A stretch of DNA of 64,000 nucleotides from a bacterium (GTDB lineage Bacteria > Patescibacteriota > Minisyncoccia > Phycocordibacterales > UBA5272): contig JAIXVU010000002.1 in assembly GCA_027482685.1 (NCBI GenBank), positions 19,352 to 83,351 on the forward strand, in the 5' to 3' direction. Shown one piece after another: positions 3,254-21,519 of the stretch. A program made the translations under genes and the position numbers. The stretch's first letter is position 1. Each line of letters begins with the position of its first letter. The notes beneath the pieces were generated by a model. The model did not search any database. It was not told the DNA's origin and was given only the letters and a program-made list of their open reading frames with translations.

Positions 3254-4192
3254 TTACGGCACAATTTCTGCGATAATTTGATTGAGATAATTTTCATCAA
3301 GACAGTCGTCTGGATTTCGTTCATTGATTTCATTAAAGTACTTATATGAAACTCTTGTGAGACGTGTTTCTTTTCTAAGGAACATTTCATACTCCATATC
3401 GATATGACCAATGTCTATTACACGATAACCTTCTTTAAATAGGTCATAGGTCAATACTTTTGCTGCTGGACCAAGAGAAATAAGAATAAGTTTATCTTTA
3501 TCAAGTCTAAGTGCCTCTTTTTTAATCTCACTATATTTTGCATAAGCATTCTCAGGTGGACAAAGTATACGTTTGATTGATTTTACTTGAGAAAATATAT
3601 CATTACCAACACCTATTCGGCTTTTTGATCCTTCAATTAGAACAACGTCTTTGTTTTCCCAAATTTTGAAAAGCTTCTTGAAAAAATGACCATTACCCGC
3701 CTTATCCTTAAATGCAAGATATGGCCTAGATATATGAGTGTCACCATAAACGATATCTTTTTTTGTGAGAGCTTTCCATACATGACCATTTCGATAGAGG
3801 TGATGCATGTAGAACCAGTAAGCAACTGTATCAAAATCTTCAATGCCTCTCCATATACCAGGTATACAGACAAGCAAACCTTTCTCATTTGTTTGAATTA
3901 TTTCTTCAAGTCTTTTTGTAAGGTCATTTTGATTTTTTTGGAATGCAGTTGCTCCGCCGTCGAGCATATAAATTTCACCATCGCCGAAACGAACAACAGA
4001 TAGATTTTCTTTAATGATTAGATCTATTGTATCAGAGATAGATAAAACATTCGGTACGTTTTTGTTTTTTAAAACGTACTTGTTAGACATGTACAAAATA
4101 TAAGCAACTACAGGTCCAATCTTCTGTCGTAATGTCAGGGGGGTTATTGATCGTATTTTTTTGACGATAGTCTGATAGATAGTTGTTCTCAT
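3254..4192 (-). CDS. GT-D type glycosyltransferase (DUF1792 family)
   Basis: 312 aa; contains the RFGDGE signature of DUF1792/GT-D glycosyltransferases. Confidence 0.55.
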   Translation of the reverse strand: MRTTIYQTIVKKIRSITPLTLRQKIGPVVAYILYMSNKYVLKNKNVPNVLSISDTIDLIIKENLSVVRFGDGEIYMLDGGATAFQKNQNDLTKRLEEIIQTNEKGLLVCIPGIWRGIEDFDTVAYWFYMHHLYRNGHVWKALTKKDIVYGDTHISRPYLAFKDKAGNGHFFKKLFKIWENKDVVLIEGSKSRIGVGNDIFSQVKSIKRILCPPENAYAKYSEIKKEALRLDKDKLILISLGPAAKVLTYDLFKEGYRVIDIGHIDMEYEMFLRKETRLTRVSYKYFNEINERNPDDCLDENYLNQIIAEIVP

Positions 4193-4194
4193 TA

Positions 4195-5082
4195 TTAGTG
4201 TTTTCTTATACCGAGTTTAAACAGTATACGTTTGACAAAATTTTTTAAAGATATAATGTAGTTCTGTTTGAGGAAATGCCACTTCATTTTTTCTTCTGAA
4301 AGCGAGAGATTATATAAATCACTGATCCAAAGTGCAATCTTCATAGTAGATTCTTGGCGTTTTGCAACAGTTTCAAAGCCAGGGCATATATCCCAGCGCA
4401 TATTGTCGTTTCTAGTTTTCACTATTGGTTTTGCAATAAGTACAACTTTTTCCTCTTTGAACGCACTTAGTAAAATAAAAAGATGTACAGCTTGACTATC
4501 GAAGTATTTTTCTTTTTCTTTAAAATTCATCCAAATATCTCTTTTAAATATTTGCATTGATATGCCACCAAAATTCCCTACAAGATCAGTGTAATCTTTA
4601 ATTGACCTAACAAATTCCCCCAACGTATCATAAGTGACATTGTGTGTAATCTTCCTGTTAGGAGAAGACATTATTGGGTGAATAAGATCATGATCGTACC
4701 CCCAACAATTTGCTATGTAATAAGGACTTTTATGTTGCTTGAGCTCCTCAAGAAGATGGTTGATGCTATCTGGGAACAGTCCATCATCATCACCTAATGT
4801 TAAACAGTATTCGCCGGAGCTCTTGTCTACAACCTGCACCAGATTTCTGTCAAATCCAATGTTTTGAGAATTTTTATAATAATGTATGTTGGTAAAGTTA
4901 GCCTGAAATTCCTTAACTACATTTTCGGTTGCATCAATGCTTGCGTTATCTGAAATAACAATTTCAACATTGTTAAGAATAAATGGGTCTTTACACTGGG
5001 AAGTAATGGTGTTTAGACATTGCTTCAAACAGTCAGCTCTGTTATACGTTGGTATACAAATACTTAGAAGTGGTGCGTGCAT
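4195..5082 (-). CDS. glycosyltransferase family 2
   Basis: 295 aa; SICIPTYNRADCL...EIVISDNASID is a classic GT2 N-terminus with a DDD motif. Confidence 0.7.
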   Translation of the reverse strand: MHAPLLSICIPTYNRADCLKQCLNTITSQCKDPFILNNVEIVISDNASIDATENVVKEFQANFTNIHYYKNSQNIGFDRNLVQVVDKSSGEYCLTLGDDDGLFPDSINHLLEELKQHKSPYYIANCWGYDHDLIHPIMSSPNRKITHNVTYDTLGEFVRSIKDYTDLVGNFGGISMQIFKRDIWMNFKEKEKYFDSQAVHLFILLSAFKEEKVVLIAKPIVKTRNDNMRWDICPGFETVAKRQESTMKIALWISDLYNLSLSEEKMKWHFLKQNYIISLKNFVKRILFKLGIRKH

Positions 5083-5113
5083 AACAGTTTTAGATATTTA
5101 AGTATACCATAAT

Positions 5114-6418
5114 TTAGAGACCTCCTCGTATGGTGTTTAGCATGACTTTTCTTGATTTTTTAAATAAAAATAAAGCTCCAAGCGGGATAAAGTAAGATAT
5201 AAGACTGGCAAATGCTGCGCCGACCATGCCAAAAATGGGTATGAAGAAATAGTTTAAAATAATATTCGTAATCATACCTAAAAAGCTTGTTATTGAAATG
5301 ATTTTTGTCATATTTTCAGAAACTAATATCTGATGACTTAAAGAATTAAGTATTCCTCCAACATTACTCCATACGTACACTTGTAAAACGGTATACGCTC
5401 CAATAAAACTTGACCCGAATATAAGTAATATAAAGTCTTTTGAGAATAAGCTTGTAATAAGTGCTGTTCCCGCAGATATTGCAAAAACTAATAAGTATAA
5501 TTTTTTTATTCTCGCATAATATAATTGCTCTGAAACTTTTTTTGCATTAACAATTGCTGGAAATAGACTTGACGTAACTATTGCTGGAATGACATACCAG
5601 ATTTCAGAGATCGATACAGCCGAGCTATAAAGCCCAACCGAAGTGGCATCCATCATGTTTTTAATCATCACCTGATCTATTCTTGCATAAATAGTAACAA
5701 AAGCAGAAGCAAAGATTAAAGGGAATGAGTCTTTGATTATTCCGAGCGCGATTACCTTATCGAATTTCAATCGGCGGACAGTGCCATAGAATTTGGTTCG
5801 AATATACAAATATCCAAGCATGTATAGCACTGCTTCAAGTAATACGATACACGCCAGAAAGATAACACCTTTATCTAAGATAGTTGTTGTTATTTTTAAT
5901 ATATTTAAAATTATTGTAACACCAAGAACAAGCAGGTAGGGGTATTTCTGCTGAACATTTGCCTGAAATTCATAACTAATTAAATTAAAAGAGTTAAAGA
6001 CAAAACCCAAGCTTATAATAAAAATCAGAAATAAAGAAACATCTTTATCAGACAGTAGAACAGCAAAAAGCAGACAAAGCCCGATCGTTAGTAGTGAAGC
6101 TACGAAACGAAGACCAATAGCGGAACCAAGATATTCATTTCTTTTTTCTGGAAATCTAACCAAATCTCTATAGAGCACTTGGTCAATTCCAAGCGCTGCT
6201 ACGAAACTAAACAACCCAACGAAACTTATCGCATAGCTTAACTGTCCATAGTTTGTTGGACCAAGATGCCTAGCTACATAAAGCATGGTAATTAAAGAAA
6301 TTACCATGCTTGCGATTTTTGCGAAGAACATCCATCCCATGTTTTTTGTATGTTTCTTAACACCGGGATGGGATGTTTTTTCTTGTATGTAGCCGACGGT
6401 TTTTTCGAAGTAGTCCAT
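5114..6418 (-). CDS. wzx: polysaccharide flippase (Wzx-like, MOP superfamily)
   Basis: 434 aa, about 12 predicted hydrophobic helices, typical composition of oligosaccharide flippases; glycan cluster context. Confidence 0.65.
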   Translation of the reverse strand: MDYFEKTVGYIQEKTSHPGVKKHTKNMGWMFFAKIASMVISLITMLYVARHLGPTNYGQLSYAISFVGLFSFVAALGIDQVLYRDLVRFPEKRNEYLGSAIGLRFVASLLTIGLCLLFAVLLSDKDVSLFLIFIISLGFVFNSFNLISYEFQANVQQKYPYLLVLGVTIILNILKITTTILDKGVIFLACIVLLEAVLYMLGYLYIRTKFYGTVRRLKFDKVIALGIIKDSFPLIFASAFVTIYARIDQVMIKNMMDATSVGLYSSAVSISEIWYVIPAIVTSSLFPAIVNAKKVSEQLYYARIKKLYLLVFAISAGTALITSLFSKDFILLIFGSSFIGAYTVLQVYVWSNVGGILNSLSHQILVSENMTKIISITSFLGMITNIILNYFFIPIFGMVGAAFASLISYFIPLGALFLFKKSRKVMLNTIRGGL

Positions 6419-6493
6419 ATTACCAGTATACCTTATACCTTATGTGCTACATTTTATTTTATAGAAACACACTTCTGAATAATTTTGTTTAGG

Positions 6494-7720
6494 CTACTTC
6501 TCGTAGCGTAACAAAAATTCATCAATCTTACTTTTCAGGTAGTTTATCTGATCTGTATCTAATCCATGATGGCAAGCAAGCACAAATGCATTTTTCATTA
6601 TCGTGTCGGTGTTTGGGAATGCCTTACTTATTTTCCTGTTAACAATTTTTTTGAATCCTGGTTGCTTGAGAATATTGCCTGCAAATACTGGGCGTGTCTG
6701 GATATTATTATCTTCAAGGAAGGTGACAATTTCTAAGCGTGTAAAAGGTGACTTTGGTTTAATGATAATAGGAAAGGCTAACCATGCAGTTTCTGTATTT
6801 GGTGTCTGTGTTGGGAGGATAAAATATTTTTCCTTGGCTGAAATAAATTCTGTTAACATAGTAAAGTTCTTCCTTCTTTTTTCTAAAAATCCTGGAAGTC
6901 TTTTCATTTGCGTAAGAGCAAACGCTGATGAAATTTCAAGTGGAAGAAAGTTATAACCCACCTCGCTAAAAATAAATTTGTTATCGTACGGAATACCATT
7001 CAACTTAAAGTTGAAGCGATTTTTTAGAAGTTCTGAGTTTGCTTTTTCACCGTAGAGTGATGATTGGCGACCCCATCCACGGAGTACTTTTAGACGAGAC
7101 TCCCATTTTGGGTCATTTACCATAATCATTCCTCCACCACCGGCACCGTTAATGATGTGTGATCCATAGAAACTTGTTATAGAGATATCTGAGTATTTAC
7201 CGGTTGGGTTACCGTGAAATGTTCCACCTAACGTATCGCAAGAGTCTTCGATAAAACACAACTTATGTTTTTTAGCAATTTTTGCAAGAGCTTGCATATC
7301 AGGGATATTGCCCATTAGTGACGGAATCATGAGAGCTTTTGTTTTCTTTGTGATAGCTTTCTCTACTTGTTCCAGGTTAACAAGGTATGTTGTTGGGTCT
7401 ACGTCAACAAATACAGGGATAAGTCCTTTTTGCACAATAGGAGACACAACAGTTGCAAATGTAAGAGCTGGGGTTATAACCTCAGAACCTTTGGGAAGAT
7501 TAAGGAGTTCAAAGGCAAGTAGATTAGCAGATGAACCGGAGTTAACCATAACACCATATTTTTTACCAAACATTTTTGCAACCTTTGCCTCAAATTCTAT
7601 AGTTTTATCTCCAAGAGCAGTATTTCCTCTTAGCACCTCAACAACCGCGGCGATCTCTTCTTCTCCGTGGACCGAAAAACCGTACGGGACTCTTAGCTTT
7701 TCTTGCTTTGCTTTAGGCAT
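6494..7720 (-). CDS. ddhC: DegT/DnrJ/EryC1-family PMP-dependent sugar 3-dehydrase (CDP-4-keto-6-deoxyglucose 3-dehydrase, E1/RfbH-like)
   Basis: 408 aa; DegT-family fold. A His replaces the usual PLP-Lys (SFYGSHIINGAGGGG), as in E1/ColD 3-dehydrases. Lies next to ddhA/ddhB homologs. Confidence 0.6.
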   Translation of the reverse strand: MPKAKQEKLRVPYGFSVHGEEEIAAVVEVLRGNTALGDKTIEFEAKVAKMFGKKYGVMVNSGSSANLLAFELLNLPKGSEVITPALTFATVVSPIVQKGLIPVFVDVDPTTYLVNLEQVEKAITKKTKALMIPSLMGNIPDMQALAKIAKKHKLCFIEDSCDTLGGTFHGNPTGKYSDISITSFYGSHIINGAGGGGMIMVNDPKWESRLKVLRGWGRQSSLYGEKANSELLKNRFNFKLNGIPYDNKFIFSEVGYNFLPLEISSAFALTQMKRLPGFLEKRRKNFTMLTEFISAKEKYFILPTQTPNTETAWLAFPIIIKPKSPFTRLEIVTFLEDNNIQTRPVFAGNILKQPGFKKIVNRKISKAFPNTDTIMKNAFVLACHHGLDTDQINYLKSKIDEFLLRYEK

Positions 7721-8211
7721 ATGTTATTGTGGTTAATTAATTTTTCTGACTGAATCTGCTTTGATAAATGTGTCTATTAAATATATCAGATGTGGCGGCA
7801 TTTTCAAACTCGAGCTATTACTAGTGATGTAGTCTTTGAGAATCTTAGTGGAGCTTTAGTGCTGTGTAAATATAAAAGAATTTCTTGGGTTTCCTTTTTT
7901 CAACAATGAGAGGCGAGCGAGTGCGGAAACTAATAAGGATATAAAGAAAGGATTTTGACTTTTTATAATTCTACAATTCAAATAAATTAGAGACCCCCTC
8001 AAGCAATTTCTGTTTGAGGGGGTTATATTTTCATTCTATAAATTCACTGGAGTGATTATTTTAAGGAAGGAGAAAGGGTACAGAAATTAATAGAGGATAC
8101 AAGAAAATACTGTTTGACTAATTAGATTAATTGTGTTAGTGTTTTTTTAGATAGGCTGTTCTTTTAGTTGACGCCGTCAACAGAACACTTGTCGTTTAAG
8201 GAGAAATATCG

Positions 8212-8970
8212 ATGACCGCTTATGTGGTTGACCCCCTTAGCTATGCACGGGCAAGCTCGCTCGTGCTAGTGGACGCTCGTCCGAAGACCGACATTGTGTT
8301 CATTCATGGCTCACCAGCTGCGAATGATGCGATTGATGCTGAGCTTCTGAAGCTTGCTGTCGATATGGTTCGTACGCAAGAGACGGAGAAACTCGTCATC
8401 AACGGCCTCACAGATGAAGCGTGCTGGCCAAACGGACAGCGGTTGGCGTACCCCGGGTGTAATACCTGGGGGCGTACGTTGCAAGGGCTTGGATTCTCTG
8501 AGTTCTTGAAGATTCCGCCGTCTAAGCACACTGCTGCGGAGAGCGATAACCTGATCAAGCTCGCAGCCGAGATGGGCTGGAAGAAGCTCGTCATCATGAG
8601 TTACCCCCACCACATCTTGCGGTGCATGCTTCAGATGGTCTTCTGTCTCAAGCGTGCAGGGTCAGACCTCAAGGTTTACACTCGTACGCTCCCATCTGTC
8701 AACTGGCAGATGGTCGCCGAGAAGGGGGTGCTTGGGAAGGCGCCTTTCCGAGGCACACTGGTTGATGCCCACATTCGTGAGGAGTATGAACGTTTGATCA
8801 GTTACGCAGATCGCGCTTGTTTCGAAACTCCAGACGGTCGAATGGTCTCTGAGGAGGAAGCTGGGTCAAATGACAAACGAAAGTACACCCCGCACGCAAC
8901 GCTCGAAGAACTGATCGACTACTACAAGCAGCGCGACGATCAAGGTATTCCAGATCATTTCCCTGGTTGA
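8212..8970 (+). CDS. hypothetical protein, DUF218/YdcF-like; compositionally foreign (GC-rich)
   Basis: 252 aa; visibly about 55-58 % GC against about 30 % in flanks. Canonical SD AAGGAG 8 nt upstream; TGA stop; loose DUF218 pattern (DIVFIHGS...VINGL...VIMSYPHHILRCM). Followed by hairpin terminator 8994-9029. Confidence 0.35.
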   Translation: MTAYVVDPLSYARASSLVLVDARPKTDIVFIHGSPAANDAIDAELLKLAVDMVRTQETEKLVINGLTDEACWPNGQRLAYPGCNTWGRTLQGLGFSEFLKIPPSKHTAAESDNLIKLAAEMGWKKLVIMSYPHHILRCMLQMVFCLKRAGSDLKVYTRTLPSVNWQMVAEKGVLGKAPFRGTLVDAHIREEYERLISYADRACFETPDGRMVSEEEAGSNDKRKYTPHATLEELIDYYKQRDDQGIPDHFPG

Positions 8971-8993
8971 AGTCATACACCGCTACCCCATAA

Positions 8994-9029
8994 GCCCTCC
9001 AGACTCAGGCCTGGAGGGCTTTTTCTTTT
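8994..9029 (+). terminator. rho-independent terminator (gccctccag-actcagg-cctggagggc + T-run)
   Basis: Perfect 9-bp GC stem followed by tttttctttt, directly after the 8212-8970 stop. Confidence 0.6.
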
Positions 9030-9185
9030 GTGAAAAGGATAGAATATACGATTATAATTCATACTCTATGAAGATCATTTTTGGGTTGTTATTACACTAT
9101 TTTTTCTGTATAATGGTAATAATTGAAAAATCTCTGATAAAGCCATTTGTGTTGGTATGCTAAAGGTTTTTGAAAGGCTAAACGC

Positions 9186-10253
9186 ATGAAAAATTTTTAT
9201 AAAAATAAAAAAGTTCTCATTACAGGCCATACAGGCTTCAAAGGTTCATGGCTTACACAAGTGCTCCTTAATTGGGAGGCAGAAGTTGTCGGTGTATCAC
9301 TAGCTCCAAATACAGAACCTAACCTTTTTGAAATTTTAGGACTAAAAGCAAAAATAAAAAACTATTTTTCTGATATTAGAAATTTAGAAGCAATGAAGAA
9401 AATTTTTATAGACGAAAAGCCAGAGATAGTATTTCATCTCGCCGCTCAACCGATTGTGAGGTTAAGTTATGATGATCCACTCGGAACACTTTCAACCAAT
9501 ATTATGGGAACAGCCAATATTCTTGAGGTGTGTAAAGAGGCTACGTCAGTTAAATCAGTTGTCATTATCACAACTGATAAAGTATACGAAAATAAAGAGT
9601 GGCACTACGCATATCGCGAGAATGATCCGCTTGGTGGGCACGATCCATATAGTTCTAGCAAAGCTGCTGCCGATATCGTAACCAACTCATACATTCAGTC
9701 ATTCTTTAATCCAGAAGACTTCGGCACGAAACATAACGCACTCGTAGCTATTGCTCGTGCGGGGAATGTTATAGGGGGAGGCGATTGGGCGGAGTATCGT
9801 CTCATTCCGGATGTTATTAAAGCTATCTACCATACAGACACCCATGTCGAGATACGTAATCCGGAAGCAGTTCGCCCATGGCAGCATGTCCTTGAGCCGC
9901 TCTCAGGGTATCTTATGCTCGCAGAAGAGCTTTATAATAAAAAGAAAGAACTTTCAGGCGCATGGAATTTCGGACCTAATAACGATAGTTTCGTTAGTGT
10001 ACGAGTGCTCGCCGAAGGCGCAAAAGAAATTTTGGGTAAAGGGGAATACAAAATTAATCCAGATACCACCAAACATGAGGCGAATCTTCTCAAGCTCGAT
10101 ATCAATAAAGCTATAGCAGTACTTGGCTGGAAGCCGCTACTATCATTTAAAGAAACACTCGATCTTACATTTAATTGGTATAAGAATTATTATGAAAATG
10201 GTGAAGATATAGTAGAATACACCAATAAGCAGATTAATTCCTTTCTCAAATAA
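9186..10253 (+). CDS. rfbG: CDP-glucose 4,6-dehydratase
   Basis: 355 aa; VLITGHTGFKGSWL Rossmann motif and overall RfbG/DdhB-like sequence; followed by the cytidylyltransferase. Confidence 0.8.
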   Translation: MKNFYKNKKVLITGHTGFKGSWLTQVLLNWEAEVVGVSLAPNTEPNLFEILGLKAKIKNYFSDIRNLEAMKKIFIDEKPEIVFHLAAQPIVRLSYDDPLGTLSTNIMGTANILEVCKEATSVKSVVIITTDKVYENKEWHYAYRENDPLGGHDPYSSSKAAADIVTNSYIQSFFNPEDFGTKHNALVAIARAGNVIGGGDWAEYRLIPDVIKAIYHTDTHVEIRNPEAVRPWQHVLEPLSGYLMLAEELYNKKKELSGAWNFGPNNDSFVSVRVLAEGAKEILGKGEYKINPDTTKHEANLLKLDINKAIAVLGWKPLLSFKETLDLTFNWYKNYYENGEDIVEYTNKQINSFLK

Positions 10254-10256
10254 CGT

Positions 10257-11030
10257 ATGAAAGTTGTACTACTAGCGGGTGGGTTAGGAACACGATTAAA
10301 TGAAGAGACTCAGGTAAAACCGAAACCAATGGTAGAGATAGGTGGTAGGCCAATACTTTGGCATATCATGAAGATATACGCTCATCACGGTTTTACTGAA
10401 TTTGTTATTTGTCTTGGATACAAGAGTCATTATGTAAAAGAGTGGTTCAGTGATTACTTCTTGCACAATAGTGATTTTACATTAGACATGAAAGATAATA
10501 CTATTACGTATCACAAGACAGCAGAGGAGAAGTGGAAAATTACATTTGTTGATACAGGGCATCTAACTATGACAGGTGGGAGAATAAAAAGAATCCAAGA
10601 ACATATCGGAAATGAGTCATTCATGATGACATACGGGGACGGTGTTGCAGATATCGATATCAAGAAACTTGTTGATTTCCACAAAAAAGGAAAGCGAATT
10701 GCTACGATTACATCTGTACTTCCTGAAGGAAGGTTCGGAACTATTTTTTCTGATAAGGATTACTTGGTTACATCATTTAGTGAAAAGACTGATAACAAGA
10801 ACAGGGTCAACGGAGGTTTTTTTGTGTTTGAGCCGAAAGTGTTTGACTATATTCTTAATGGCGATGAGACAATTTTTGAAAAAGGCCCGCTTGAACAACT
10901 TGCAAAAGATAATCAGTTGCAAGCATACCATCATGATGGGTTCTGGAAGCCAATGGATACGTTAAATGATAAGAATAAACTAGAAGAAATGTGGAATAAA
11001 GGGGGCGCACCGTGGAAGATATGGGATTAA
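10257..11030 (+). CDS. rfbF: glucose-1-phosphate cytidylyltransferase
   Basis: 257 aa; MKVVLLAGGLGTRL...KPMVEIGGRPILWHIM is the classic RfbF/DdhA N-terminus. Confidence 0.8.
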   Translation: MKVVLLAGGLGTRLNEETQVKPKPMVEIGGRPILWHIMKIYAHHGFTEFVICLGYKSHYVKEWFSDYFLHNSDFTLDMKDNTITYHKTAEEKWKITFVDTGHLTMTGGRIKRIQEHIGNESFMMTYGDGVADIDIKKLVDFHKKGKRIATITSVLPEGRFGTIFSDKDYLVTSFSEKTDNKNRVNGGFFVFEPKVFDYILNGDETIFEKGPLEQLAKDNQLQAYHHDGFWKPMDTLNDKNKLEEMWNKGGAPWKIWD

Positions 11031-11048
11031 TCTTATTGCATCACTTGA

Positions 11049-12833
11049 ATGAAAAATACCACACAATCTAAAAAGCTATATTCAGAAGTAATTGTAGATT
11101 TTTTGGTAGAGAAAAAAATCACTCATGTATTTGATCTAACTGGTGGCATGATTGCGTTTATTGAAGATGCTATCAGCAAGACAAAAGGCATTGATTGTGT
11201 ACCTGTTCATCACGAACAAGCAGCAGGATTTGCAGCCGAAGGCTATGCAAGGAATGGGAATAATTTTGGGGTAGCAATTGCTACAAGCGGGCCAGGTGCA
11301 ATGAACTTAATGACGGCAATCGGTAGTTGTTATTTTGATTCTGTTCCAACGTTATTTATAACAGGTCAAGTACATACCGATAATATCAAGAAGAATAGTC
11401 TTGTACGCCAAGAGGGGTTCCAAGAAACTGATGTGGTAACTATCGTAAAGTCTCTCACTAAATATGCAGTACTAGTAACTGATCCTAATCAAGTTCTCTA
11501 CGAACTTGAAAAAGCACATTATATTATGAAACAAGGTCGTCCAGGACCAGTGCTTGTTGATATACCGATTAATATACAAAGAACTTTAGTAGACAGTAAG
11601 AACGCACAGCATTTCTATGGTTCAAAGGAACATAAGAAAATGGAATCAGAGAATTCTAAGCTCTATAAAGAGATTGGTAAAACAAAAATATCAGTATTTC
11701 AAAAATTATTAGAAGAGTCTAAAGCGCCTCTTGTTCTTGTGGGTAATGGTGTTAGATTATCTCAAACAACGAAAGAACTTGCGATGTTTGTGAAGAATAA
11801 TAATATACCAGTTGTAGCGTCTCTAATGGGGCTTGATACATTTTCAAATACAAAATATTTTGTCGGGTACATCGGTTCTAATGGTAACAGGCATGCCAAT
11901 ATAACGTTTGCAAATGCTGATCTTATAATTGTTCTCGGCAGCAGATTAGATATCAGGCAGACAGGGGATCCTAAATTTTTTAATCAAAGAGCAACTATTA
12001 TTCATGCAGATATTGATGCAAGTTCTATCGACTATGCAATTCCTGCAAAGATATCTTTTAATACGGATTTACCTCATTTCTTTTCTGCTACGAAACATAT
12101 AAAAACTCCAGTTAAAAAACCTTGGGTGAATTTTATCAAACAGGTAACAAATGCTTTTGCTCGACCGTTGGTATATGGTAATGAGATAAATCCAAATACA
12201 TTTTTTACCGAACTTTCAAATGCAAGTTATCCTGATTCAACTATTGTTGTTGATGTCGGCCAAAATCAACAATGGTGTGCCCAGTCGTGGACTGTAAAAA
12301 ATAATCAGAGGCTTCTATTCTCAGGTGGAATGGGCGCAATGGGGTTCGCATTACCTGCTGCAATTGGTGCATGGTACACCAATCAGAAATCTCAAGTCAT
12401 TGTCATATCTGGAGATGGGGGTATACAGATCAACATTCAAGAATTAGAAACTGTTAGTAGAAATAAAATACCAATGAAGATTTTTGTATTGAATAATAAA
12501 TCTCTTGGCATGGTTCGTGAGTTTCAAGATTTGTATTTTAATAAAAACTATCAGTCAACAGTGAAGGGGTATGGTAATCCGGATTTCAAGAAACTTGCAG
12601 GAGCATATGGGATTGATTATGCTCTCATAAAAAAGATTTCAAATAACGATTCTAATCTCAAAGATATACTTGCAAGTAGCAGGCCGGCACTTATTGAAGT
12701 TGAGATACCAATAACTGCTAAGCTAGAACCGAAAGTAGTCTACGGGCATAAGCTTGATGATCAAGCTCCATATCTTGATCAAGCGCAGCATGACTTTTTG
12801 GAACAATTAAAAGCCAGGCTGTATACTTTATAG
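11049..12833 (+). CDS. thiamine-diphosphate-dependent enzyme (acetolactate-synthase large-subunit family); candidate CDP-sugar C-branching enzyme (YerE-like)
   Basis: 594 aa; N-terminal Pyr domain, and a GDGG...NN ThDP-binding motif (ISGDGGIQINIQEL...VLNNKSLG). Sits immediately after ddhB/ddhA like yerE in Yersinia yersiniose clusters. Confidence 0.7.
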   Translation: MKNTTQSKKLYSEVIVDFLVEKKITHVFDLTGGMIAFIEDAISKTKGIDCVPVHHEQAAGFAAEGYARNGNNFGVAIATSGPGAMNLMTAIGSCYFDSVPTLFITGQVHTDNIKKNSLVRQEGFQETDVVTIVKSLTKYAVLVTDPNQVLYELEKAHYIMKQGRPGPVLVDIPINIQRTLVDSKNAQHFYGSKEHKKMESENSKLYKEIGKTKISVFQKLLEESKAPLVLVGNGVRLSQTTKELAMFVKNNNIPVVASLMGLDTFSNTKYFVGYIGSNGNRHANITFANADLIIVLGSRLDIRQTGDPKFFNQRATIIHADIDASSIDYAIPAKISFNTDLPHFFSATKHIKTPVKKPWVNFIKQVTNAFARPLVYGNEINPNTFFTELSNASYPDSTIVVDVGQNQQWCAQSWTVKNNQRLLFSGGMGAMGFALPAAIGAWYTNQKSQVIVISGDGGIQINIQELETVSRNKIPMKIFVLNNKSLGMVREFQDLYFNKNYQSTVKGYGNPDFKKLAGAYGIDYALIKKISNNDSNLKDILASSRPALIEVEIPITAKLEPKVVYGHKLDDQAPYLDQAQHDFLEQLKARLYTL

Positions 12834-12835
12834 TT

Positions 12836-13732
12836 ATGAAATCGATAGCAATTCTAGGTGCAACCGGGTATATTGGAACATCCTTGTCTCGCGAGTTTGC
12901 AATGCAAAAAGAAACAATAGATTTATACCTATTCTCTCGCTCACAAGAAAAGATTTTGAGTCTGAAGGAATCTATTAAAGAGCTAGGGGAACAGTCTAAT
13001 AATTATTTTTATTCTAAGGACGTATTCCACAATCATACCTACGATGTCATCATTAATTGTACAGGAGTGAGTGACCTTACCACACTCACTGAACAACCCG
13101 ATCAGATTATCGACATCACTGAGAGTATGGATATTATAATCCTCGAATACCTTAAGAAGAAACCAGATACAATGTATATCAACATGAGTAGTGGTGCGGT
13201 ACATAACACGCCAGGCGCTGGCTCATCCACTATGACTCCAGCAGACTTTTATACTTTCGCAAAAAAAGAAGCAGAGAAGAAGCATCGCTCACTCGGTAAT
13301 CTTTCTATCGTTGATATCCGCATCTTTTCTTTTTTTAGTCGTTATGTTAATCCGAAAAGTCACTTTTTAATGTCAGAAATAGTTGATTGTATAACTAATA
13401 ATAAAGTTTTTGAAACAAGTGGTGAAGATATTATTCGTGACTATATTTCGCCGCATGATTTATGTGCACTCATTCTTTGCATTATCAACAAAAAGAAAAT
13501 AAATGATGCTTATGATGCATATAGTAAATCTCCAGTTTCTAAATTTGAAATACTAAATTTTTTAAAAGAAAAACACGGGCTTGTTTATAGTATTAAAGAA
13601 GGAACTATAAAAAATGGGTTATCTAAAAACGATTATATTCCAAAAGATAAGAAAGCAAATACACTAGGGTACGACCCGGTGTTTAGCTCACTTGAAAGCA
13701 TTAATCATGAGATTAACGCACTTCTGAAATAA
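12836..13732 (+). CDS. NAD(P)-dependent SDR oxidoreductase (candidate 4-keto reductase, YerF-like)
   Basis: 298 aa; GATGYIG Rossmann motif, YTFAK (YxxxK) catalytic dyad; the stop-start overlaps the ThDP-enzyme gene (coupled). Confidence 0.55.
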   Translation: MKSIAILGATGYIGTSLSREFAMQKETIDLYLFSRSQEKILSLKESIKELGEQSNNYFYSKDVFHNHTYDVIINCTGVSDLTTLTEQPDQIIDITESMDIIILEYLKKKPDTMYINMSSGAVHNTPGAGSSTMTPADFYTFAKKEAEKKHRSLGNLSIVDIRIFSFFSRYVNPKSHFLMSEIVDCITNNKVFETSGEDIIRDYISPHDLCALILCIINKKKINDAYDAYSKSPVSKFEILNFLKEKHGLVYSIKEGTIKNGLSKNDYIPKDKKANTLGYDPVFSSLESINHEINALLK

Positions 13733-13739
13733 TCTGGAA

Positions 13740-14732
13740 TTATTTACCAGCTTTTGCTTTCTCTACTTGCTCCTGTACCCAGGTGTACATGATAGCCATC
13801 CCATCTTTCAGCGAGAAGTGAGGTTTCCACCCAAGTTTTTCTTCAATGAGTTTATTGTCAGAGTTTCTTCCTCTCACACCAAGGGCTCCAGGAATATGCT
13901 TTAGGGTTAATTTTTTCTCAGCAATTTCTGCAGTCATCTCTACCAGCTCATTAATCGTTACCATTTCGTCAGAACCGATATTAACAGGACCCATAAAATC
14001 AGAATCCATTAGTCGTCTGACGCCTTCTAGACATTCATCAATAAATAGAAATGATCGTGTTTGTCTACCATCACCCCAAACTTCCACCTCACCACCATCT
14101 GCTGCTTCAGCAACTTTTCTACATACTGCAGCTGGTGCCTTGTCTCGTCCACCAGTCCACGCTCCTTCTGGTCCAAAGATATTATGGAAACGTGCAATGC
14201 GCACATTCATGCCATAGTTTCTATGGTAAGAGAGATACATGCGTTCACTGAAGAGTTTTTCCCATCCATATTCACTATCTGGTGCTGCTGGATATGCTGA
14301 AGCTTCTGCACAGTTCGGGTTCTCTGGATCGAGCTGGTTGTGTTGTGGGTAGATACAAGCGGACGAAGAATAGAAAAGTTTTTTTATTTTTGCGATATTA
14401 CCGTAATGAGCAACGTTGAGATTTATTTGAGCTGAATTATGTACTACATCAGCATCATGCTCACCCGAGAAAATATATCCAGCACCACCCATATCAGCAG
14501 CAAGTTGATACACTTCATCAAATGGTTGATCAAACACAGACTCGCATATCTTCTGATCACGTAAATCTCCAATGATAAATTCATCAGCAAGGGTCTCACT
14601 ATATTCTGGTCGTTTGATATCAACAGCACGTACCCAGAATCCTTCTTTTTTCAATCTCGTAACCAGATGATTTCCAATAAACCCTCCACCTCCAAGAACT
14701 AGTGCTGTTTTCATAAAAATGTGATTATTCAA
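13740..14732 (-). CDS. gme: GDP-mannose 3,5-epimerase
   Basis: 330 aa; strong similarity to plant/bacterial GME: ADMGGAGYI, ARFHNIFGPEGAWTGGRDKAPAAVCRK, SFLFIDECLEGVRRLM, HIPGALGVRGRNSDN. The real start may be the internal MKTALVLGGGGFIG. Confidence 0.8.
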   Translation of the reverse strand: MNNHIFMKTALVLGGGGFIGNHLVTRLKKEGFWVRAVDIKRPEYSETLADEFIIGDLRDQKICESVFDQPFDEVYQLAADMGGAGYIFSGEHDADVVHNSAQINLNVAHYGNIAKIKKLFYSSSACIYPQHNQLDPENPNCAEASAYPAAPDSEYGWEKLFSERMYLSYHRNYGMNVRIARFHNIFGPEGAWTGGRDKAPAAVCRKVAEAADGGEVEVWGDGRQTRSFLFIDECLEGVRRLMDSDFMGPVNIGSDEMVTINELVEMTAEIAEKKLTLKHIPGALGVRGRNSDNKLIEEKLGWKPHFSLKDGMAIMYTWVQEQVEKAKAGK

Positions 14733-14817
14733 TTAATTATACAGAAAACACAATGTTAATCAAGTCCAAAAATAGCACCATGATACAATATAATTTATCA
14801 ACAATATAAAGTAATAT

Positions 14818-15273
14818 ATGAAAACACCACACAGACTCTCTGATGAAGATTTCGCACATATTTATAGCATGGTGCCGAGATTAAATGTGGATCTTATTGT
14901 ACGCACAGCAGATGGTGGGGTTGTACTCATTAAAAGATCAATAGAGCCACATATCGGTGCATGGCATGTCCCAGGGGGTACCGTGTATAAAGAAGAAAGA
15001 ATGTATGAGGCTGCTGTTCGCGTGGCAAAGAATGAAACTGGTTTTGATGTTGTCGTTGATAAACAACTAGGCTTTATGGAGTTTCCATTTGAAAAGCGTG
15101 GCGATTTAATGATTCATACAATAAGTATTGTAATTGAGGTAAAAGTAGTGAGTGGCGAATTAAAGCAAGACACTAATGCGAAAGAAATTAATATATTTTA
15201 TAAACTCCCAGAGGAAGATGGTATTCCAGAGCACTTTACATTTTTACAAGAGAATGGAGTTTTTGAAAAATAA
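14818..15273 (+). CDS. NUDIX hydrolase (GDP-mannose mannosyl hydrolase-like)
   Basis: 151 aa; Nudix box GGTVYKEERMYEAAVRVAKNETG. Confidence 0.6.
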   Translation: MKTPHRLSDEDFAHIYSMVPRLNVDLIVRTADGGVVLIKRSIEPHIGAWHVPGGTVYKEERMYEAAVRVAKNETGFDVVVDKQLGFMEFPFEKRGDLMIHTISIVIEVKVVSGELKQDTNAKEINIFYKLPEEDGIPEHFTFLQENGVFEK

Positions 15274-16134
15274 TTAGTAACTTTCTTTCTTAAAGAAGCG
15301 CGTTGAATCTTTTTGCATTGCATCTACAATTTGAGCGATACCCGTTTCTATACTTGTTTTTGGTTTCCAGTAGTTTAATATAAAGTCATTAGGTTCATTT
15401 CTTTTATCTTTTTGTACTTCATCTTTTGAGATTGCTGGGATTATCCTTGATCCAGGGAAATGTGAAGCGATTATGTTTGCAACATTGAGAATGTTTGTCC
15501 AATCAAAATTGGTGATATGGAGCTCTTTATCTCGAGGGATCTCGGAGTATTTTTCAGATAGTGTTACTAGCGCTTCACAGCAGTCATCAGCAAAGAGGAA
15601 CTGCCTCTCTTCTGTTCCATCGGTTAGAAGGTCAATCGTACTCGTATCATGTGCCTTTATAATAAGGTCAGTTATCACATGGGACTTATCTAGATCATGT
15701 TCCACCCCATACACATTCCAGAACTTCACGATAATACCGCCTAATATTTCGGTATATGATTCACCGACTGCTTTTAATCTGCCATAACTTGAATATGACA
15801 TGTTTGACATTTGGCTAGACGCAAAGATGAAAGGCTTTTTGTATTTGTGTAGTACATCAAACGTGTGAGTCATTAACTTCATGTTATTGCCGATGAAGTC
15901 TGGCGTTTGTTGATAGATTTTCAAATATCGTGACCCTCCAACATCAAACGCTAAAAAGAAAACAAAATCAGCTTGTGCAACGAGTGTATCTAGAAGGGGG
16001 TTGTTATAGATACGAAGGTCTTGTTCAGGGGAGTTCACAATATCAAACTCAAGCACATCATGCCCTTTTTGTTGTAAAAAGCTCGTAAGTGCTGCACCCA
16101 CTTGTCCTTCTGATCCTAATACGAGGTATTTCAT
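15274..16134 (-). CDS. NAD-dependent epimerase/dehydratase family (RmlD/Fcl-like reductase)
   Basis: 286 aa; GSEGQVG (GxxGxxG), YGRLK (YxxxK). Confidence 0.55.
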   Translation of the reverse strand: MKYLVLGSEGQVGAALTSFLQQKGHDVLEFDIVNSPEQDLRIYNNPLLDTLVAQADFVFFLAFDVGGSRYLKIYQQTPDFIGNNMKLMTHTFDVLHKYKKPFIFASSQMSNMSYSSYGRLKAVGESYTEILGGIIVKFWNVYGVEHDLDKSHVITDLIIKAHDTSTIDLLTDGTEERQFLFADDCCEALVTLSEKYSEIPRDKELHITNFDWTNILNVANIIASHFPGSRIIPAISKDEVQKDKRNEPNDFILNYWKPKTSIETGIAQIVDAMQKDSTRFFKKESY

Positions 16135-16222
16135 AATGCTATTTTATAGATAATTAGTTTAACTGTACTATTTTTTTTACTTTATTGCAAAGATTTTTAT
16201 TGAATGTTACCCTGTTAACACC

Positions 16223-16711
16223 ATGATTATTCAATACAACGATTTAGCAAAAATTCGTGATATACACAAGGATAAAAAAATAGTTTTCTGTTCAGGGAGT
16301 TTTGATTTGTTACATGCGGGGCATGTTCTTTTTTTTGAGGAATGCAAAAAATTTGGTGATATTCTAGTGGTTGCAGTTGGGGATGATTCTATTATAAAAA
16401 TAAAAGGCAGTAATCGCCCTATCTTGAATGAATACATTAGGATAAAAATGGTTGACTCATTAAAAGTAGTTGATTTTTGTTTTAAACATAAAAATGTTCC
16501 TGGTGCTTTTCTTAACCAGTTTATGCTGGAAGTGTTAGAGTTACTTCAGCCTAACACGTGGGTTATTAATGCAGATGCAAGTGAAATAGATTTTAGAAAA
16601 GAGTTGGCAAAAAAATTTAATGTAGATATACATATTTTAAATAGAGAGTGCCCACCTGAGTTTGAAGAAATTTCAACTTCAAATATTATAAAAAAAATTG
16701 CAAATATGTAA
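16223..16711 (+). CDS. cytidylyltransferase-like nucleotidyltransferase (HldE domain II / RfaE-II / TagD-like sugar-phosphate nucleotidyltransferase)
   Basis: 162 aa; GSFDLLHAGHV...FGDILVVAVGDDS...KGSNRPI matches the RfaE-II/HldC pattern. Confidence 0.6.
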   Translation: MIIQYNDLAKIRDIHKDKKIVFCSGSFDLLHAGHVLFFEECKKFGDILVVAVGDDSIIKIKGSNRPILNEYIRIKMVDSLKVVDFCFKHKNVPGAFLNQFMLEVLELLQPNTWVINADASEIDFRKELAKKFNVDIHILNRECPPEFEEISTSNIIKKIANM

Positions 16712-20637: not shown

Positions 20638-21519
20638 ATGATAGTTATTAAAATTCAAGGAGGTTTAGGTAATCAATTATTACAATACAGTATAGGACAG
20701 GTATTGGCGACTAATTATCATAAAGAAGTTGCCTACGACCTTAGTTTTTTTGATGCAGACACTAAGTACACTAAACGACCTTATTTACTAGATCTTTTTA
20801 ACTTCACTGTCCGTAAAGCAACGCAAGAAGAAATAAAAAAAGCAAAATATCCATATGGAATAATATCAAAAGTTTTCGTTATGATAAAAAAAATACTTAA
20901 CAAGTATTTTTTTAAAAAATATTATATTGGATATGATAAAAATTTTTTACCGCGTGTAATAAAAGCTGATTATTTATATTTAGAAGGTTTTTGGCAAGGG
21001 TATAAGTACTACGAAAAAAATCTTAAACAGCTTAATGAGCTCATTAAGCTCAAAGACATGACACAGGTAGAAGCTTTTAAGCATCAGATAATTTTCAATG
21101 AAGAGTCTTCGGTCTCAGTTCATATTAGACGTGGAGATTTTCTTAAGAAAAACGCAGGGACAAAAGCTGTGCCCAAAGAATATTATATGCGTGCGGTTCC
21201 ATTGTTAGAAAAGAAAATTCTAAACCCTACATATTATGTTTTCTCTGATGATATTGAGTGGGTTAAGCAAGAGATGAAGACTCTTTTTAGAGAAGGGGTT
21301 AATGCCGTTTTTGTATCTTCGTACAATCTCCCAGACTATCAAGAGTTCATGCTTATAAATAACTGCAGGCATGCTATTTTATCAAACTCTACGTTTTGCT
21401 GGTACTCAACGCTTTTGACAGACTCAGAAGAAAAGGTTGTTATATTCCCAAATAATTGGGAAAACGAATATCTAAATAAAGATCCCAATATTTGCCCACC
21501 ACATTGGATCGGCGCATAG
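20638..21519 (+). CDS. glycosyltransferase family 11 (alpha-1,2-fucosyltransferase-like)
   Basis: 293 aa; IKIQGGLGNQLLQYS and HIRRGDF are the GT11 motifs I and II. Confidence 0.7.
   Translation: MIVIKIQGGLGNQLLQYSIGQVLATNYHKEVAYDLSFFDADTKYTKRPYLLDLFNFTVRKATQEEIKKAKYPYGIISKVFVMIKKILNKYFFKKYYIGYDKNFLPRVIKADYLYLEGFWQGYKYYEKNLKQLNELIKLKDMTQVEAFKHQIIFNEESSVSVHIRRGDFLKKNAGTKAVPKEYYMRAVPLLEKKILNPTYYVFSDDIEWVKQEMKTLFREGVNAVFVSSYNLPDYQEFMLINNCRHAILSNSTFCWYSTLLTDSEEKVVIFPNNWENEYLNKDPNICPPHWIGA

Follow-up and report, generated by a model that had tools for sequence, protein, structure and literature searches.

A predicted CDP-linked route to a branched 3,6-dideoxyhexose in a candidate phyla radiation bacterium, with an E1-like dehydratase that lacks the iron–sulfur loop cysteines

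Analysis of a 64-kb stretch of DNA (the window) from a candidate phyla radiation (CPR) bacterium points to a locus that, with a probability of roughly 0.6, encodes a CDP-linked route to a 3,6-dideoxyhexose with a two-carbon branch at C-4 (a yersiniose-like octose) for a Wzx/Wzy surface glycan. All five core ORFs were recovered at exactly the limits given by the original prediction (Table 1), and its proposal of a candidate yersiniose-like pathway gains support from the placement of the ThDP enzyme among YerE-like proteins and from the homology of the adjoining SDR to the Yersinia yerF-position gene. Its assignment of the host to the CPR is borne out by GyrA, which is 88–89% identical to proteins of Candidatus Pacebacteria/Parcubacteria MAGs.

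Table 1. Features of the glycan locus, with positions counted from the first nucleotide of the window.
Feature	Position	Strand	Basis
GT-D/SP_1767-family glycosyltransferase	3254–4192	minus	profile match
Minus-strand operon, genes downstream of the DegT enzyme	3254–6418	minus	profile matches
GT2 glycosyltransferase	4195–5082	minus	profile match
Wzx-type flippase	5114–6418	minus	profile match
His-type DegT-family putative NDP-hexose 3-dehydratase	6494–7720	minus	PF01041, E = 2e-82
Loop residues 216–236, WGRQSSLYGEKANSELLKNRF, no Cys; counterpart of the E1 [2Fe-2S] loop WGRDCYCAPGCDNTCKKRF	7013–7075	minus	
His188 codon, position of the aminotransferase PLP-binding Lys	7157–7159	minus	alignments
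Unrelated high-GC ORF within the inter-operon spacer	8212–8970		
Two sigma-70-like promoter matches upstream of ddhB	9030–9114	plus	consensus matches only; function not implied
ddhB, CDP-glucose 4,6-dehydratase	9186–10253	plus	TIGR02622 equivalog
ddhA, glucose-1-phosphate cytidylyltransferase	10257–11030	plus	TIGR02623 equivalog
yerE-like ThDP-dependent carboligase (predicted), 594 aa	11049–12833	plus	profile, PDB, tree, residues
yerF-like extended SDR reductase (predicted), 298 aa	12836–13732	plus	homology to Yersinia yerF-position gene
Wzy_C-domain protein, 746 aa, polymerase or ligase candidate	21586–23826	plus	domain; same place in L088

The glycan locus spans about positions 411–23826 and is closed by the Wzy_C-domain protein. 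The DegT enzyme is encoded by the first gene of a minus-strand operon that continues with wzx and the glycosyltransferase genes, the products of which are likely the users of the activated sugar. A gene order ddhABC-yerE-yerF had been proposed, but the ddhC-like gene runs on the minus strand, away from the plus-strand set ddhB-ddhA-yerE-yerF, and the two operons are split by a 1.46-kb spacer that, with its high-GC ORF, had gone unmentioned. The sigma-70-like matches are located just 3' of the terminator of this inserted ORF. Identification of the two CDP-glucose genes was correct: ddhB scores 480.7 bits against TIGR02622 (cut-off 278.45) and ddhA 387.1 bits against TIGR02623 (cut-off 300.25), which places both above the equivalog cut-offs.

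Judged by sequence family, the ThDP enzyme is YerE-like and not an acetolactate synthase (ALS). It matches all three TPP domains (PF02776, PF00205 and PF02775), the central one of FAD type, and both catalytic Glu56 (11214–11216) and the previously noted GDGG...NN motif could be located, the latter as GDG-X24-NN with GDGG at residues 455–458 (12411–12422) and NN at 482–483 (12492–12497). The place of the conserved ALS Trp (the 'QWQ' segment) is occupied by Phe492 (12522–12524); Phe is present here in 23/23 YerE-like sequences, whereas 69/76 ALS-like sequences have Trp. The top names among the NCBIfam matches are ALS large subunits, yet the enzyme falls under every NCBIfam ALS cut-off, with 441 bits against TIGR00118 (cut-off 538), a model to which eight sampled ALS-side proteins score 613–837 bits.

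The top PDB match is 5AHK (384.6 bits, 37% identity over 570 aa; plant AHAS, 275 bits), which we take to be the structure of PpYerE from Pseudomonas protegens, reportedly described by Hampel et al. in 2018. This identity is supported by Val at native position 479 of 5AHK, which matches the published V479 variants. With PpYerE the window enzyme has in common the three-domain ThDP fold, GDG-X24-NN, the catalytic Glu, Val in 'GMV' and Phe where ALS has Trp, but it is just 37–38% identical to YerE-type proteins that are characterised or come from Yersinia, and its carboligase activity is predicted. 5AHK itself shares 68% identity with the product of the Yersinia vastinensis gene in the yerE position, after ddhDABC. 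JanthE (8RPH), which the literature also terms YerE-like, matches the window enzyme with 221 bits, under plant AHAS, so 'YerE-like' does not describe one tight clade.

A tree of 99 sequences, inferred by neighbour joining only and without YpYerE, ErwE and MMAR_2332, united the 23 ThDP genes of a sugar set in one clade (bootstrap 200/200), a set of which seven loci (the window, L002, L004 and L006–L009) were checked for deoxysugar neighbours and to which 5AHK and 15 metagenome homologues were assigned a priori. This clade contains 5AHK and the Yersinia yerE-position gene, all 76 ALS-like genes fall outside it, and the window enzyme belongs to a distinct CPR sub-clade within it (bootstrap 200/200). 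The phylogeny that had been suggested as a check therefore groups the enzyme with 5AHK and the Yersinia gene rather than with IlvB/AlsS.

The gene downstream of the ThDP gene encodes an SDR and not a small regulatory subunit, and neither an ALS small-subunit gene nor a branched-chain amino acid (ilv) gene was found in the window. The SDR ATG at 12836 is separated by 2 nt from the ThDP stop codon (TAG, 12831–12833), in agreement with the translational coupling described earlier. The protein features the SDR motifs GATGYIG (residues 8–14), Ser118/119 and Tyr139-x3-Lys143, and aligns across 305 aa at 33% identity (E = 1e-48) with the product of the post-yerE gene of Y. vastinensis, our reference in place of the biochemically studied YerF; GATGYIG, SSG and YxxxK correspond in the two. 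Identity to the same-position gene of the CPR locus L088 is 44%.

The DegT-family enzyme is E1-like by sequence and, on its residues, ColD-like in predicted cofactor make-up. As originally read, His replaces the PLP-binding Lys: on realignment His188, within SFYGSHIING (residues 183–192), aligns with E1 His220 and ColD His188, and the corresponding PDB segments are SFYPAHH in the E1 dehydrase 3BCX and SFYPAKH in its H220K variant 3BB8. SFYGSH is kept in 120/120 of the closest homologues, and 148/150 representatives at 50% identity have His at the catalytic position. Neither a PLP-binding Lys in this protein nor an IlvB/AlsS grouping of the ThDP enzyme, the two outcomes named beforehand as counting against the original prediction, was found. 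The ddhC-like label given to the gene stands with respect to the His and the likeness to E1 but requires qualification, because the enzyme is a non-canonical E1 without the [2Fe-2S] cysteines. The E1 motif C-X57-C-X1-C-X7-C is broken by a loop that reads SSLYGEKANSELL where E1 has C-Y-C-...-C, such that of the four cluster cysteines only the upstream Cys161 is retained and the other three are missing. A loop Cys was found in 0/120 of the closest homologues and is absent from all of the best 24 representatives at 50% identity, while conservation of the Cys-free loop (0.93) is above the protein average (0.83). These homologues form a tight clade with a Cys-free loop (72–100% identity, 120 protein clusters) and with Cys161 as the sole invariant Cys, and the ColD chain in the PDB alignment also has Cys at this position. 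In the RfbH model NF011936 the enzyme reaches 361.7 bits, under the cut-off of 423, compared with 744.5 bits for Yersinia DdhC.

A tblastn search with Yersinia DdhD gave a best match of only E = 0.1 in the 64-kb window, which agrees with the earlier remark that no E3 (ddhD) is visible there; the same query revealed none in the CPR loci, and no real ORF of the window contains a ferredoxin-type Cys motif. E3 is probably missing because the dehydratase has no [2Fe-2S] cysteines. Taken alone, its absence nearby is weak evidence, since CPR loci that retain an Fe-S-type E1 also have no neighbouring E3, as is the case for Aliarcobacter. According to a review, E1 and SpnQ depend on a reductase in addition to a [2Fe-2S] cluster, while ColD has no cluster and relies on hydrolysis and glutamate (PMC8987622). 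As far as sequence and the 64-kb window can tell, the enzyme carries the ColD-type hallmarks of a catalytic His, no Fe-S cluster and no reductase partner, although its gene context is the CDP-glucose pair ddhA and ddhB and not the GDP-4-keto-6-deoxymannose/colitose setting of ColD. We infer that it performs a ColD-type, reductase-independent 3-dehydration.

A pathway is proposed in which DdhA would form CDP-D-glucose and DdhB would convert it into CDP-4-keto-6-deoxy-D-glucose, both steps resting on equivalog-level HMM assignments. The DegT enzyme would then take off the 3-OH via a PMP Schiff base, His188 acting as the base. With no [2Fe-2S] site and no E3, the glucoseen intermediate would probably be freed by hydrolysis, and glutamate or another amino donor would restore PMP, as in the ColD route, to give CDP-4-keto-3,6-dideoxy-D-glucose. 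We know of no demonstrated case of this amino-donor chemistry among CDP-sugar enzymes. The YerE-like enzyme is predicted to decarboxylate pyruvate and add the acetyl-anion equivalent to C-4, and the coupled SDR, for which homology to the yerF-position gene of Yersinia was observed, could turn the acetyl branch into a 1-hydroxyethyl group, with reaction and stereochemistry presumed. Genetic linkage suggests that the glycosyltransferases and flippase of the divergent operon would use the product.

Other readings of the two central enzymes were weighed against this pathway. The NCBIfam names and the labels of JGI homologues would suit an ordinary acetolactate/acetohydroxyacid synthase of branched-chain amino acid or acetoin metabolism that lies near sugar genes by chance, but the cut-offs, the 200/200 split from ALS in the neighbour-joining tree, Phe492, the lack of a small-subunit or ilv gene in the window and a linkage to ddhA/ddhB that is kept in six further loci and in Yersinia effectively refute this very improbable reading. 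The YerE-like enzyme might instead take a longer or functionalised 2-oxo acid and so yield a longer-branched, erwiniose- or caryophyllose-like sugar. ErwE and MMAR_2332 use such acids, donor preference varies widely among characterised relatives (PMC12247030, PMC9306805), and at just 37% identity to 5AHK homology does not reveal the donor specificity; the ErwE, MMAR_2332 and MyGE clusters, however, encode a donor-making aldolase, and since no aldolase or acetaldehyde dehydrogenase gene was found at positions 1–24000 of the window we consider a longer donor unlikely.

It is similarly doubtful that the DegT enzyme serves another sugar while YerE and YerF act on CDP-4-keto-6-deoxyglucose to form a branched 6-deoxyhexose that retains the 3-OH. 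A separate role would fit its place in the opposite operon, beyond 1.46 kb and a foreign ORF, and in L002 and L088 the dehydratase together with an RmlC-like epimerase and an SDR could yield a plain 3,6-dideoxyhexose. Against this, a His-type dehydratase accompanies the yerE-like gene in nine loci (the window, L002, L004, L007, L008, L009, L088, L089 and L090), all characterised YerE-type sugar pathways use a 3-deoxygenated acceptor, and the window holds no other NDP-4-keto-6-deoxyhexose source for the enzyme. The dehydratase could also work in an E1- or SpnQ-like manner through an unlinked reductase or ferredoxin, with other cluster ligands or direct reduction, given that SpnQ runs on general ferredoxin or flavodoxin reductases (PMC8987622), that Fe-S-type E1 genes in other CPR and Aliarcobacter loci have no adjoining E3 gene, and that within a genome view of 64 kb an E3 or general reductase could lie elsewhere. 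We regard this as quite improbable, because the three loop cysteines are absent from 120/120 homologues, the one invariant Cys is shared with ColD, and the window offers no ferredoxin-type motif in a real ORF.

The proposed CDP-linked branched-sugar pathway most closely resembles that of yersiniose A, the genes of which run ddhD-ddhA-ddhB-ddhC-yerE-yerF in Y. pseudotuberculosis O:6/O:12; the Y. vastinensis locus L009 served as its representative for comparison. Both share the same five-enzyme set with the SDR directly after the ThDP carboligase (53% identity for the cytidylyltransferase, 46% for the 4,6-dehydratase, 36% for the 3-dehydratase, 38% for the ThDP enzyme and 33% for the SDR), and wzx lies nearby in the window as it does in Yersinia (PMC5399914). 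Unlike Yersinia, the window has no ddhD, its 3-dehydratase lacks the [2Fe-2S] cysteines, ddhB precedes ddhA and the ddhC-like gene is divergent. E1 (AscC/DdhC/RfbH) is the closest solved sequence to the dehydratase (3BCX, 267 bits; ColD, 180 bits), and the two have the CDP-glucose context, the His, Tyr and Asp active-site positions and the loop length in common, the ColD loop being shorter; the differences from the E1 plus E3 system are the three cluster cysteines, E3 and the RfbH cut-off. ColD (PDB 2GMS/3B8X) also has His for Lys, no iron–sulfur cluster and no dedicated reductase, but its substrate is a GDP-sugar and its pathways lead to colitose. To our knowledge CPR bacteria lack lipopolysaccharide, and a classical O-antigen is therefore excluded as the acceptor glycan.

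A more tentative proposition, to which we give somewhat less than even odds, is that a whole Parcubacteria/Paceibacteria lineage bears on its cell surface a C-4 hydroxyethyl-branched 3,6-dideoxy octose, made with neither an iron–sulfur protein nor E3 by an E1-lineage enzyme in which a conserved Cys-free loop has taken over from the [2Fe-2S] loop and which applies ColD-type chemistry to a CDP-hexose. If true, CDP-3,6-dideoxyhexose synthesis independent of E3 would be on record for the first time, and the CPR would gain its first assigned branched-chain sugar. The surface glycans of CPR episymbionts are, as far as we know, essentially uncharacterised and likely mediate attachment to the host, and here a pathway that is conserved and can be read from its genes leads to the prediction of one particular rare sugar, which could be sought by GC-MS or NMR. 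The Cys-free E1-like clade provides a test of whether C-3 deoxygenation of CDP-hexoses can proceed without the E1/E3 radical machinery, and the CPR YerE-like clade would add distant members to the small set of ketone-accepting ThDP enzymes. JGI labels the ThDP homologues acetolactate synthase, a name that can mislead metabolic reconstructions of the CPR into assuming synthesis of branched-chain amino acids.

Rather than being confined to this genome, the pathway is conserved and widespread within the CPR lineage concerned, with many Paceibacteria/Parcubacteria metagenome contigs carrying the module within a Wzx/Wzy glycan locus. A branched sugar in Patescibacteria had been called unexpected, which holds for the literature but not for these sequence data. 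The set ddhB-ddhA-yerE-yerF with a divergent Cys-less dehydratase and wzx recurs in the CPR loci L002 and L088, and variants of the module are found in L004, L089 and the Aliarcobacter locus L090. Operon linkage of yerE-like, ddhA and ddhB genes extends to L006 in addition to these five loci, and to Yersinia, while a yerE-like gene beside NDP-4-keto-deoxyhexose genes and followed by a reductase gene is seen in the window, L002, L004, L088, L089, L090 and L009. L002 and L088 share the flippase and glycosyltransferase arrangement of the window; in these two relatives an RmlC-like epimerase and an SDR follow the dehydratase, and in L088 the Wzy_C-domain gene is kept at the same place.

The window carries a Wzx/Wzy-type glycan locus whose minus-strand part comprises GT2, FkbM and TylF-like methyltransferases, GT-D, a further GT2, Wzx and then a DegT-family 3-dehydratase, and whose plus strand carries a ddhB-ddhA-yerE-yerF-like operon with intergenic gaps of 3, 18 and 2 nt. 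All five ORFs of this putative branched-sugar module were found exactly where the original prediction had placed them; the Yersinia-like gene order it proposed does not hold, as the dehydratase-like gene is divergent from the operon and parted from it by a 1.46-kb spacer containing an ORF that the prediction had passed over. Beyond the operon lie two GDP-fucose-synthase-like SDRs, a NUDIX protein, a cytidylyl/adenylyltransferase-like protein and a GT2, and farther on a DXD glycosyltransferase, DUF268, GT11 and a 746-aa Wzy_C protein. GyrA shares 88-89% identity with Candidatus Pacebacteria and Parcubacteria MAG proteins, in support of a CPR origin, and the locus architecture is near-identical in the CPR loci L002 and L088.

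Features of the glycan locus and other elements of the window
Feature	Position	Strand	Remarks
Wzx/Wzy-type glycan locus	~411-23826		
3-Dehydratase, DegT/DnrJ/EryC1 family	6494-7720	minus	408 aa; PF01041, E 2e-82
Spacer between divergent operons	7721-9185		
Orphan ORF, 252 aa	8212-8970	plus	GC 0.52-0.57, flanks 0.31-0.40
Hairpins beside orphan ORF	7992-8024 and 8992-9021		include a terminator-like one of its own
CDP-glucose 4,6-dehydratase (ddhB)	9186-10253	plus	TIGR02622, 480.7 bits (cut-off 278)
Glucose-1-phosphate cytidylyltransferase (ddhA)	10257-11030	plus	TIGR02623, 387.1 bits (cut-off 300)
Three-domain ThDP enzyme (yerE-like)	11049-12833	plus	
Extended SDR (yerF-like)	12836-13732	plus	
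Second sugar branch	13740-16711 and 20638-21519		
HTH_3/enolpyruvyl transferase fusion, 504 aa	30453-31967	minus	

By sequence, the ThDP enzyme is YerE-like. Its best PDB match is 5AHK (384.6 bits, compared with at most 275 for plant, yeast and E. coli AHAS), which we take to be PpYerE; this is supported by its 68% identity to the gene directly after ddhD-ddhA-ddhB-ddhC in Yersinia vastinensis (L009) and by the Val at its native position 479, V479 being the site changed in the PpYerE variants that have been published. Among the 80 loci listed by a genome scan with the YerE-like alignment, most are true ALS genes, which served as the ALS outgroup, and only L006-L009 are YerE-like; the scan also supplied the Yersinia reference. 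That the window enzyme is itself an acetolactate synthase is effectively ruled out by scores, tree, active-site residue and neighbourhood. The window protein falls under every NCBIfam ALS cut-off (TIGR00118, 441 vs 538 bits), whereas eight proteins sampled on the tree's ALS side reach 613-837 bits. In a neighbor-joining tree of 99 sequences, built without YpYerE, ErwE and MMAR_2332, the window gene, its CPR homologues, L006-L009 and 5AHK form a clade of 23 separated from 76 ALS-like sequences with a bootstrap of 200/200; the CPR sub-clade is likewise recovered in 200/200 replicates. Phe492, one of four columns that separate the groups, is Phe in 23/23 YerE-like and Trp in 69/76 ALS-like sequences, and in AHAS the Trp at this column sets acceptor preference. 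No small subunit or ilv gene was found in the 64-kb window, and across the 80 loci listed and the other loci compared, deoxysugar neighbours occur only beside ThDP genes whose score against the window protein is 336 bits or higher. AHAS is closer to the window protein than JanthE, which has also been termed YerE-like. For the window protein, 93 homologue clusters reach at least 50% identity, and the named ones are mostly Patescibacteria. CPR YerE-like proteins carry the JGI label 'acetolactate synthase-1/2/3 large subunit', a misannotation that could lead to branched-chain amino acid biosynthesis being overstated for CPR genomes.

Because the glycan locus, unlike the ErwE and MMAR_2332 clusters, has no aldolase gene, pyruvate would most likely be the donor of the YerE-like enzyme. 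The SDR that follows is YerF-like on alignment: it matches the gene after yerE in Yersinia over its full length (33% identity, E 1e-48) with conserved GxxGxxG, Ser and YxxxK positions. Among CPR relatives, the post-yerE gene is of the YerF type in L088 (44% identity to the window SDR) and of another, unrelated SDR family in L004 (11776-12669) and L089 (11752-12621), as it is in Aliarcobacter (L090, 11755-12678). The YerF type co-occurs with a Cys-free dehydratase in CPR (the window and L088) and with Fe-S-type DdhC in Yersinia; the other type co-occurs with an Fe-S-type E1 in other Patescibacteria and Aliarcobacter butzleri.

The reading of the DegT protein as having His in place of the PLP-binding Lys was right, as His188 aligns to His220 of the AscC/DdhC/RfbH dehydrase E1 (PDB 3BCX) and to the catalytic His of ColD. 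The E1 cluster loop WGRD-C-Y-C-APG-C-DNT-C has the counterpart WGRQSSLYGEKANSELL in the window dehydratase, which lacks three of the four [2Fe-2S] ligands. This is no single-genome accident: the 120 closest protein clusters (72-100% identity, ~407 aa) all combine SFYGSH with a Cys-free loop; the loop is also more conserved (0.93) than the remainder of the protein (0.83). Of 150 representatives at 50% identity, the catalytic His occurs in 148 and the Cys triad in about a third, the 24 best-scoring all being Cys-free. The Fe-S-type proteins do not split off cleanly in a neighbor-joining tree, although 41 of 53 share one clade. Some Cys-free members (P0242, P0243, P0248, P0250 and P0258) are fused at either protein end to a 4,6-dehydratase/epimerase-type SDR or an RmlC-like domain, in line with a function in deoxysugar pathways.

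A 2022 review distinguishes three routes, in which E1 uses a cluster plus its reductase E3, SpnQ a cluster plus general reductases, and ColD hydrolysis with no cluster and with PMP regenerated from glutamate (PMC8987622). Because three of the E1 cluster ligands are absent, we infer for the window enzyme a ColD-type mechanism that would act on a CDP-sugar, and the absence of E3 would then be unsurprising. The original prediction had seen no E3 in the window; tblastn with Yersinia DdhD confirmed this and gave no match in the CPR loci either, and no real ORF of the 64-kb window contains a ferredoxin-type motif. As a caveat, the E1 genes of Fe-S type found in other CPR loci and in Aliarcobacter also lack a neighbouring E3, and none lies within 10 kb in any compared locus except Yersinia.

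[quoted passage not shown] Judged by title and abstract, none of the 25 best-ranked of 62 papers mentioning yersiniose deals with CPR. New here are the host lineage, the pairing of a Cys-free E1-lineage dehydratase with YerE/YerF, and the absence of E3 from the 64-kb window. The identities shared with reference enzymes are modest (33-38%), and every chemical step of the pathway is inferred. At least 17 pairs of ThDP and dehydratase homologues share the same size of longest source sequence, which points indirectly to their co-location.

No Pfam, NCBIfam or PDB entry matches the orphan ORF in the spacer, and we do not count this ORF as part of the pathway. An exact-sequence look-up placed it only in the sister samples SRR16126876 and SRR16126879, where it again lies upstream of that dehydratase gene. 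The ORF resembles a recent foreign insertion. The spacer is not conserved in relatives, holding a 185-aa ORF in L088 (7295-8113) and a methyltransferase, a GFO/IDH/MocA oxidoreductase and a NUDIX gene in L002 (5129-8147), and acts like a variable hot spot for insertions. Within ddhB, GC rises locally to 0.44-0.50 (9600-9999) against 0.33-0.37 in the rest of the gene, a possible recombination mosaic.

Between the Cys-free dehydratase and wzx, L002 (2359-3793) and L088 (4612-6043) carry an RmlC-like epimerase and an SDR that might convert the same intermediate into a plain 3,6-dideoxyhexose; the window (6419-6493) lacks both, so only the branched-sugar arm is kept. A second sugar branch adjoins the operon, with the two GDP-fucose-synthase-like SDRs, the NUDIX protein (GDP-mannose-mannosyl-hydrolase-like), an RfaE-domain-II-like nucleotidyltransferase and GT11 (fucosyltransferase family); its NUDIX and SDR pair is conserved in the same place in L088. 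Elsewhere in the window, one protein is an unusual fusion, with HTH_3 as its N-terminal DNA-binding domain and an enolpyruvyl transferase domain of the EPSP-synthase/MurA type.
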